DNA of 64,000 bases, from NCBI RefSeq assembly GCF_003334305.1, contig NZ_QOWS01000004.1; one strand, given 5' to 3'. The first letter of the stretch is position 1. The number at the start of each line of letters is the position of its first letter. Shown here piece after piece: positions 3,001 to 6,000 of this stretch. Made by a program: the position numbers. Source of the stretch: Escherichia coli. GTDB taxonomy: Bacteria > Pseudomonadota > Gammaproteobacteria > Enterobacterales > Enterobacteriaceae.

Positions 3001-6000
3001 ATAATACAAAGAGTGATGTGGATGCGCTGGTGAATGCCGTTGACCGCGCGCTGGAATTATTGGTGGATTAATGACAAACCCGCAATTCGCCGGACATCCG
3101 TTCGGCACAACCGTAACCGCAGAAACGTTACGCAATACCTTCGCACCGTTGTCGCAATGGGAAGATAAATATCGCCAGTTGATCATGCTGGGGAAACAGC
3201 TTCCGGCTTTGCCAGACGAGTTAAAAGCGCAGGCTAAAGAGATTGCCGGATGCGAAAACCGCGTCTGGCTGGGATATACCGTGACTGAAAACGGTAAAAT
3301 GCACTTCTTTGGCGACAGCGAAGGGCGCATTGTGCGCGGCCTGTTGGCGGTGTTGTTGACTGCCGTTGAGGGGAAAACCGTCGCCGAATTGCAGGCACAG
3401 TCGCCGCTGGCATTGTTTGATGAGCTGGGATTGCGTGCACAGCTTAGCGCCTCACGCAGCCAGGGGTTGAATGCGTTAAGCGAGGCGATTATCGCTGCGG
3501 CGAAGCAGGTTTAAGCACAGAACCAGGTCGGATAAGACGTTCGCGTCGCATCCGACCTGATTGTTTAACCCTGACGCGCCGCTTTCGCCATCATCTTCTT
3601 CAGCGCATGAGAAACCGCAACAAACCCAAAGGTGGCGGTCACCATCGTTGCCGCGCCAAATCCAGATGCACAATCCATCCGCTTCGGCCCTTCTGCCGTG
3701 GCTTTCATCGCACACACAGTACCGTCTGACTGCGGGTACACCAGCGCTTCAGTAGAAAACACGCAATCGACGCCGAGCTTACCTTTACTGTTTTTCACTA
3801 CGCCAAAATCGCTTTTCAGGCGCTCGCGCAACTTCGCCGCCAGCGGATCCTGAATCGTTTTCGCCAGATCGGTAACCTGAATCTGCGTCGGGTCAATCTG
3901 CCCACCCGCGCCACCGGTCGTGACCAGCGGGATTTTATTGCGCCGACAATAAGCAATCAGCGCCGCTTTGGGCCGTACACTATCAATGGCATCAATCACG
4001 TACGAATAACCCACGCTCATATACTGCGCTACGTTATCCGGCGTCACGAAATCATCCACCACCGTTACACGGCACTCCGGGTTAATCTGGCGAATACGCT
4101 CCGCCATGACTTCCGCTTTTGCCAGCCCGACGTTATCGCGCAGAGCGTGAATTTGCCGATTGGTATTGGTGACGCACACATCATCCATATCGATAAGCGT
4201 GATTGCGCCAATCCCCGTGCGCGCCAGCGCTTCCGCCGCCCAGGAACCGACACCACCGATACCAACCACACAAATATGCGCGTCAGCAAACAGTTGCAAC
4301 GCTTTTTCACCATACAGACGCGCTGTGCCACCAAAACGCTGACGCCATGCATCACTAATTACCACAGACATAGCACCTCAGAATTAAAAAGGGTGAGGTT
4401 ATCCCTCACCCTGGCGTATCCGTAAAAACGGTATACAGAATAACACATCAGCCGCTAAAGACGTTACCTGCGCCCGGGGCGGTTTTCAGCACCCAGACAC
4501 GTCCATAGTGGTTGTACCAACCTGCGCGATGTCCGGCTTCCGGCCCGATCCCTTGATAGATATCGAAGTGTTGGCCTTTGATTGCGCCACCGACATCCAG
4601 CGCCACCATCAGACGCAATTCGTACTGACCGTTAAATTTGCCGTTATTATCCAGCAGCGGCACTTCTGCCAGCAAGGTAGTACCTGGCGGAATAATTGAA
4701 CGATCGGAGGCAACAGAAGCACGGCCAACCAGCGGCACCGCACTTGCCCCTTTCACCGGTGCAAAAGATTGCGGTTTAAAGAAGACGAAAGACGGGTTCT
4801 GTTCCAGCAGCTCGCGAACCTCGGCTTCACTGTGTGTTTCGCCCCAATGACGAATCGCCTGCATCGACATATCTTCTTTTTTCACTTCGCCACGGTCGAT
4901 CAGCACCTTACCAATGCTGCGATAGGCATGACCGTTTTTCCCTGCATAGCTGAAAAAGTTAAGCGGACTGCCATCACCAAAGTCGATATACCCGCTACCC
5001 TGCACATCCATAATGAAGTTATCCATCAGGGAGTTGCTGTAAGCGAGAATATATTTATCACTCAGCGCCCCTGCGTAGATCTCCGCACGAGACGGCAGAC
5101 GACCACGTTTTGGCGGCATACGGTAAATCGGATACTGGAACTCGCCCTGGCGGGTATGGCGCGCCTGAATTACCGGCGTGTAATAGCCTGTAAACTGCAC
5201 GTTACCATAGTTGTCGGCACCTTCCATCTGCCAGGCATCAATGCCGAACTGACGCATATTGCGGGTATCACCGCCTGCGCGCAGCCACTCTTGCACCGCG
5301 TTATAAACATTACTCTGGTTGCCATACAGACGCGGTGACGAATTACGGATATGGTTAATTTGCTCGGCAAAATCACCGGCGTTAATCGGCGCGCCAACGG
5401 CATCTGGCTGGTTCACCAGAGAGAAAGGCTGGGTAAATTTCCCGTCTTTATATTGCTGTCCGCGATCGGTTGGTTTGGAAGAGCAGGCGGCAAGCATTGC
5501 CACAACCGTGCCCATAAGAAGGTACTTTACCCAACGTCCTTTCATTGTTCTCTTCTTCAGGTTAAAAAATAAGGCGCAACGAAGATAACAAACCGCCGCG
5601 TTTAATGAAATGAGCAGCCTCTCCCTGACGCAAATTTTGCACAAAAAATAGGCTTTAGTGATTTGTTTTTGTTCAAAATCATGCCAAATCCGTGATCGGG
5701 GTAAAAAAAAGGTTGCATGAAAACGCGAGCGGAGTATAGTGCGCATCCACGGACGCGGGGTGGAGCAGCCTGGTAGCTCGTCGGGCTCATAACCCGAAGG
5801 TCGTCGGTTCAAATCCGGCCCCCGCAACCAATTATTGAACACCCTAACGGGTGTTTTTTTGTTTCTGCTCTCCCAAAAAAAAAGCGCCATTCAGCGCCTT
5901 TTTATCATCCCCTTCTCGCCAGCGTCGCCCCATCGGCAAAATACGCTTTAATTCCCGCAAGAATAGACTCCGCAACTTCCTGCTGGAAAGTCGCCGTTTT

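Follow-up and report, generated by a model that had tools for sequence, protein, structure and literature searches.

The metZWV locus in this Escherichia coli sequence holds a single initiator tRNA gene where K-12 has three, and the allele was probably produced by a real, recent deletion through recombination or slippage across an 83-bp tract of identity. The stretch analysed (64 kb, hereafter the window) carries a reduced-copy form of a well-studied operon, and the finding is an ordinary copy-number polymorphism of that operon. Tandem tRNA arrays are known to change in copy number, and the exact window sequence is already present in an annotated public genome.

The gene, a tRNA-Met(CAT), is the sole tRNA detected by ARAGORN in the window (Table 1) and was also matched by the Rfam tRNA model (61.4 bits). 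K-12 metZ, metW and metV are identical to one another, and the window tRNA is identical to all three (77/77). Its anticodon is CAU (ARAGORN: cat, position 35). A C1xA72 mismatch tops the acceptor stem, with pair 1-72 non-canonical in the Rfam alignment, and the fold has six acceptor pairs with C1 unpaired. In the D stem, as read from the sequence, GAGC pairs with GCTC to give A11:U24, an initiator tRNA feature. The anticodon stem, read in the same way, contains three consecutive G-C pairs (GGG/CCC; CGGGCTCATAACCCG), the importance of which in initiators has been described (PMC3017606). A G at position 46, together with the 77/77 match to K-12 metZ, identifies the gene as tRNA-fMet1 and separates it from the K-12 metY product, which differs by A46 (preprint 10.64898/2026.04.16.719103). 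Every initiator tRNA feature that was examined is present. No second tRNA copy or tRNA fragment was found anywhere in the 64-kb window, nor did the K-12 internal spacer (spacer of the tandem array: AATTTGATGAAGTAAAGCAGTACGGTGA) match anywhere in it at three or fewer mismatches. The first-pass annotation had described a single initiator tRNA between mltA and amiC with its own terminator, and both parts of that description hold: one gene lies between the two flanking genes, and a hairpin followed by a T run stands directly 3' of it.

Table 1. Features of the single-copy metZWV locus, in window coordinates
Feature	Position	Strand	Basis
mltA (murein transglycosylase A), left flank, divergent from the tRNA gene	4448..5545	-	Annotation of 100% identical NZ_CP028767.1; ORF list
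Putative metZ-type promoter: -35 TTGCAT (5713-5718), 16-bp spacer, -10 TATAGT (5735-5740)	5713..5740	+	K-12 identity
83-bp tract containing the deletion junction: tRNA plus 2 nt to its left and 4 nt to its right	5752..5834		metZ/metV identity; three-copy relatives
Single initiator tRNA gene, tRNA-fMet1 type (G46), with encoded CCA	5754..5830	+	ARAGORN; Rfam; K-12 identity; fold
Intrinsic terminator of the operon: 8-bp stem and 4-nt loop (5837-5856), then TTTTGTTTC	5837..5865	+	Hairpin scan; fold
amiC (N-acetylmuramoyl-L-alanine amidase), right flank	5905..7158	-	Annotation of NZ_CP028767.1; ORF list

The signals around the gene are those of the K-12 operon. The coordinates of mltA and amiC were transferred from the annotation of strain A7, whose record is identical. 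The promoter region is identical to the sequence upstream of K-12 metZ, with a GC-rich GCGC discriminator 3' of the -10 element and an A-tract just upstream of the promoter. A consensus promoter scan of the window did not flag this metZ-type promoter, the -35 element of which matches 3/6 consensus positions. In K-12, the metZ promoter has been defined genetically by the -10 region mutations D4 and D27, and mutations in or adjoining the -10 element cut tRNA-fMet1 sharply (PMC3017606). Because the window segment is identical to that of K-12, it probably functions as a promoter as well. The terminator is likewise identical to the K-12 sequence 3' of metV. Between the terminator and the amiC stop lies a polymorphic stretch (5868-5883), which reads CTGCTCTCCCAAAAAAAAAGCGCC in the window and CTGGTCTCCCATAAAAAAGCGCC in K-12 and differs by one substitution and a change in an A run.

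The K-12 triple metZ-metW-metV that the first-pass annotation named for this position is present in MG1655, where three tandem tRNA-fMet genes of 77 nt each are separated by 33-nt spacers, giving a 110-bp period. In the alignment of the window with K-12, the upstream sequence is identical, one tRNA follows, and a clean 220-bp gap precedes the post-metV sequence including the terminator. The two loci share their position between mltA and amiC, the promoter region, the 77-nt tRNA and the terminator, whereas the window has one gene against three and has lost both 33-nt internal spacers. Measured against the description of the K-12 operon, the window departs from it only in 'three genes, two spacers'.

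Comparison with close relatives shows what is missing. E. coli A7 (from orangutan faeces; NZ_CP028767.1, assembly GCF_022493755.1) shows 100% identity to the window both in the 2.9 kb that surround the tRNA and in the 24.7 kb that follow. In these 24.7 kb, nine further genomes also match, at about 100.0%. All four relatives examined at the array itself (TUM1887, DETEC-E601, NCTC9088 and A28) carry three tandem copies. TUM1887, DETEC-E601 and A28 have 0 mismatches to the window in 1300 nt on each side of the array, and NCTC9088 has an identical leader. Relative to the first three, the window is the same haplotype minus exactly 220 bp, that is, two 110-bp units, so that an exact multiple of the repeat period is missing between identical flanks. 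In TUM1887, an identical stretch of 83 bp (2 + 77 + 4) recurs in the metZ and metV contexts, 220 bp apart. A7 has one metY gene, likewise of the G46 type, and only two places in its genome match the tRNA, which gives two initiator tRNA genes and not four. TUM1887, the closest three-copy relative at metZWV (NZ_CP128963.1), has glyVXY in single copy, and the TUM series supplies 6 of the 15 genomes with one-copy glyVXY.

These observations are best accommodated by a three-copy ancestor that would recently have lost exactly two 110-bp units (220 bp), leaving a genuine one-copy metZWV allele. Tandem direct repeats are known to delete by replication slippage or unequal crossing-over (for example, from work of the Lovett laboratory). 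Loss of whole units with a junction inside the 83-bp tract fits recombination or slippage between close direct repeats, and the window resembles such systems in precisely missing whole repeat units, with the difference that here the event is deduced from sequence comparison. Unequal homologous recombination or replication slippage would have joined the first and third tRNA copies, and the product would be a single metZ/metV hybrid gene that keeps the native promoter on its 5' side and the native terminator on its 3' side. A monocistronic precursor transcribed from this gene would yield normal tRNA-fMet1. Some observations count against a real deletion. Among the near-identical genomes examined, only A7 shows the one-copy state, which is expected under a very recent deletion and under an artefact alike; at least two genomes of the A7 project are one-copy (A7 and A23); and one-copy alleles are about as common in the species as two-copy alleles (109 versus 116), where real one-unit losses would be expected to outnumber two-unit losses.

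A possible but rather unlikely alternative is that the array truly has three (or two) copies and that an assembler or polisher merged the 110-bp units into one. Copy-number variation by repeat recombination and assembly collapse were the two explanations put forward in the first-pass annotation, and with a clean two-unit loss between identical flanks they are indeed the live ones. Collapse and real deletion yield identical sequence, the four near-identical relatives examined are all three-copy, and the database offers grounds for suspicion. One-copy calls cluster by project, with at least 10 'GF' chicken-meat genomes of several haplotypes among them; near-clonal O104:H4 assemblies conflict, showing one copy or two; and in 13/80 draft assemblies of other species the contig breaks off at the array or within it. 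Single-copy metZ also recurs in genomes in which other arrays are single, in at least 13 of 60 listed one-copy-leuQPV genomes and in 3/15 one-copy-glyVXY genomes. This co-occurrence lies far above chance (2% base rate) and points to pipelines that collapse tandem arrays, so that a share of the one-copy alleles in the database are probably artefacts.

The A7 assembly itself does not show this pattern. The signature of collapse that was sought, reduction of other tandem tRNA arrays in the same assembly, is absent from A7 and present in the positive control GF8, in which leuQPV is also down to one copy. Two other tandem tRNA arrays with three genes and the same geometry are resolved in A7, namely leuQPV (three copies) and glyVXY (three identical copies, spacers of 36 and 35 nt, a geometry almost that of metZWV), and leuQPV, collapsed in the suspect GF8, is intact there. 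A28, from the A7 project and with the window haplotype, has metZWV assembled with three copies, which argues that the pipeline can resolve the locus, and A23, from the same project and one-copy at metZ, keeps three copies of glyVXY. As a control for collapse, glyVXY is weaker than leuQPV, given that the GF genomes fall outside the 15 with one-copy glyVXY, and the argument is carried mainly by leuQPV.

The GF assemblies illustrate what collapse may look like in finished genomes. GF8 (NZ_CP172212.1, 7373-7459 of its locus record) has both metZWV and leuQPV in one copy in a RefSeq 'complete' genome, and of the at least 10 GF genomes that are one-copy at metZWV, five are also listed with one-copy leuQPV. 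The series looks like a systematic collapse of tandem tRNA arrays. Its one-copy metZWV sequence is the same as that of the window, whereas GF8 has a single leuQPV gene against three copies each of leuQPV and glyVXY in the window-identical A7 assembly. One-copy leuQPV occurs in 425/5426 complete genomes, compared with 109 for metZWV and 15 for glyVXY; whole clonal series share it, and in part it may represent a real lineage allele. The array adjoining mltA often breaks short-read assemblies, with 13/80 Enterobacteriaceae species representatives ending there. Even in 'complete' reference genomes, the number of genes given for a tandem tRNA array cannot always be trusted, and comparing several arrays within one assembly is a cheap flag for likely collapses.

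Across 5426 complete E. coli genomes, alleles were counted with short whole-allele queries at an E-value so stringent that only an uninterrupted allele passes. Counting by '80% coverage' of a 2.9-kb query was discarded, as it joined aligned pieces and mixed one- and two-copy genomes. The three-copy allele was found in 3236/5426 genomes, the two-copy allele in 116/5426 and the one-copy allele in 109/5426. Four or more tandem copies are present in 67/5426, including the commensal E. coli HS (NC_009800.1) and the K-12 laboratory derivative XL10-Gold (NZ_CP081008.1); in 26 of these genomes two overlapping matches suggest five or more copies. The one-copy alleles span many haplotypes (100% to 97.8% identity over 277 nt) and extend to the laboratory strains MC1061, ME8067 and AS19-RrmA-. 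The genome of IH5 (NZ_CP168949.1, 1503-1655 of its locus record) has mltA and a tRNA-Met of 74 nt, followed by a yraJ usher gene that is truncated and stands in place of amiC, a rearrangement or misassembly with its breakpoint at the array.

Three copies also prevail in the wider family. Among 67 Enterobacteriaceae species representatives with a complete flank, in which tRNA-fMet genes adjoining mltA were counted, 47 have three genes and 16 have two, including E. albertii and Salmonella diarizonae. One gene is present in two species (Enterobacter mori and Lelliottia nimipressuralis), four genes in one species and no gene in one. Since three copies prevail even though the structure of the array invites deletion, this state points to dosage selection. 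The two-copy arrays (Salmonella metZ-metW, E. albertii and the 116 E. coli genomes) are the same mltA-side array with copy number likewise reduced; they retain one spacer and two genes, whereas the window has no spacer and one gene. A literature search for surveys of natural variation in metZWV copy number in E. coli retrieved none, and these counts, together with the joint reduction of arrays in some 'complete' assemblies, may therefore be useful.

If the allele is real, the strain would have two initiator tRNA genes, counting metY, in place of the usual four, and about half the usual initiator tRNA. Initiator tRNA level tracks gene copy number in E. coli (PMC3017606). Full deletion of metZWV leaves ~25% of initiator tRNA and slows growth by ~20% (PMC8248024), makes cells cold-sensitive and relaxes the selection of initiators (PMC3017606), and produces growth defects specific to condition (PMC11480407). 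Strains with fewer copies are described as being at a disadvantage in rich media but favoured in poor ones (Samhita et al. 2014, summarised in PMC9981150). In Salmonella, the array is cited as shifting in copy number by amplification under selection, with amplification of metZ-metW compensating when formylation is lost (Nilsson et al. 2006, cited in PMC2859245). The window strain resembles the engineered strains (metZWV deletion and promoter-down D4/D27) in its lower initiator tRNA gene dosage. Unlike full metZWV deletion strains, it keeps one of the three genes, for a total of two of four and a milder reduction, and by analogy halved dosage would have milder effects in the same direction. It also differs from the engineered strains in that its allele resides in the genome of a natural isolate. 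A real allele would bear on the traits to which the engineered-strain literature ties dosage, namely growth in rich and poor media, cold sensitivity, start-tRNA fidelity and stress survival.

Loss of the spacers may have consequences of its own. The internal spacers of K-12 metZWV co-purify with the small RNAs RybB and MicF (PMC4583644), Hfq binds the full-length metZWV precursor, and a metW-metV spacer RNA fragment shows weak Hfq binding in vitro (PMC10710024). Both internal transcribed spacers are absent from the window allele, and by analogy with K-12 their RybB/MicF binding and weak Hfq binding would be lost with them. A broader reading holds that the spread from one to at least four copies (~2% one-copy) is largely real, that niche selection keeps low-dosage alleles and that spacer loss alters envelope small-RNA regulation; we regard it as improbable. 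Were it true, a smaller number of initiator tRNA genes would be favoured where growth is slower and nutrients are poorer, at looser initiation fidelity and with better stress tolerance, and A7 would be a natural test case for predictions that so far come from engineered K-12 only.

The locus is also a site of island insertion, and the insertion point after the array is the known metV island site. In most of the remaining E. coli genomes (~1,900), the array is followed directly by a type VI secretion island that replaces the trailer, and the full island-free locus was matched in 3462 genomes, a number that fits ~1,900 with an island. Failure of the three-copy query in these genomes reflects the type VI secretion island after the array and not four or more copies. 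By subtraction, the island (tssB and following genes) replaces the trailer and amiC in roughly a third of E. coli, with examples in NRG 857C and AH21B066 (2555-3835 in each locus record). Neither an island nor an attachment-site remnant was found in the window.

It is very improbable that the window carries an old inherited one-copy lineage allele or the scar of a metV-integrated island lost via recombination between tRNA copies: the site does gain and lose islands, about a third of E. coli carrying one there, and a few species representatives (the two named above) are one-copy, but neither a remnant of an island nor an additional tRNA fragment is present in the window, its flanks are identical to those of the three island-free, three-copy relatives, NCTC9088 is also three-copy with an identical leader, three copies are the commonest state in the family, and a three-copy reconstruction of the one-copy haplotype of PapM-36-2 has perfect matches of 3121 nt in at least 30 genomes. 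Both the PapM-36-2 haplotype and the window haplotype are thus found with three copies in many genomes, and by sequence comparison the one-copy alleles are recent derivatives of three-copy haplotypes that are themselves common, and do not represent old lineages.

Elsewhere in the window, small RNA genes lie at the K-12-like positions expected of them, with GcvB at 1225-1430 (+) and the OmrA/OmrB pair at 34250-34337 (-) and 34453-34534 (-).
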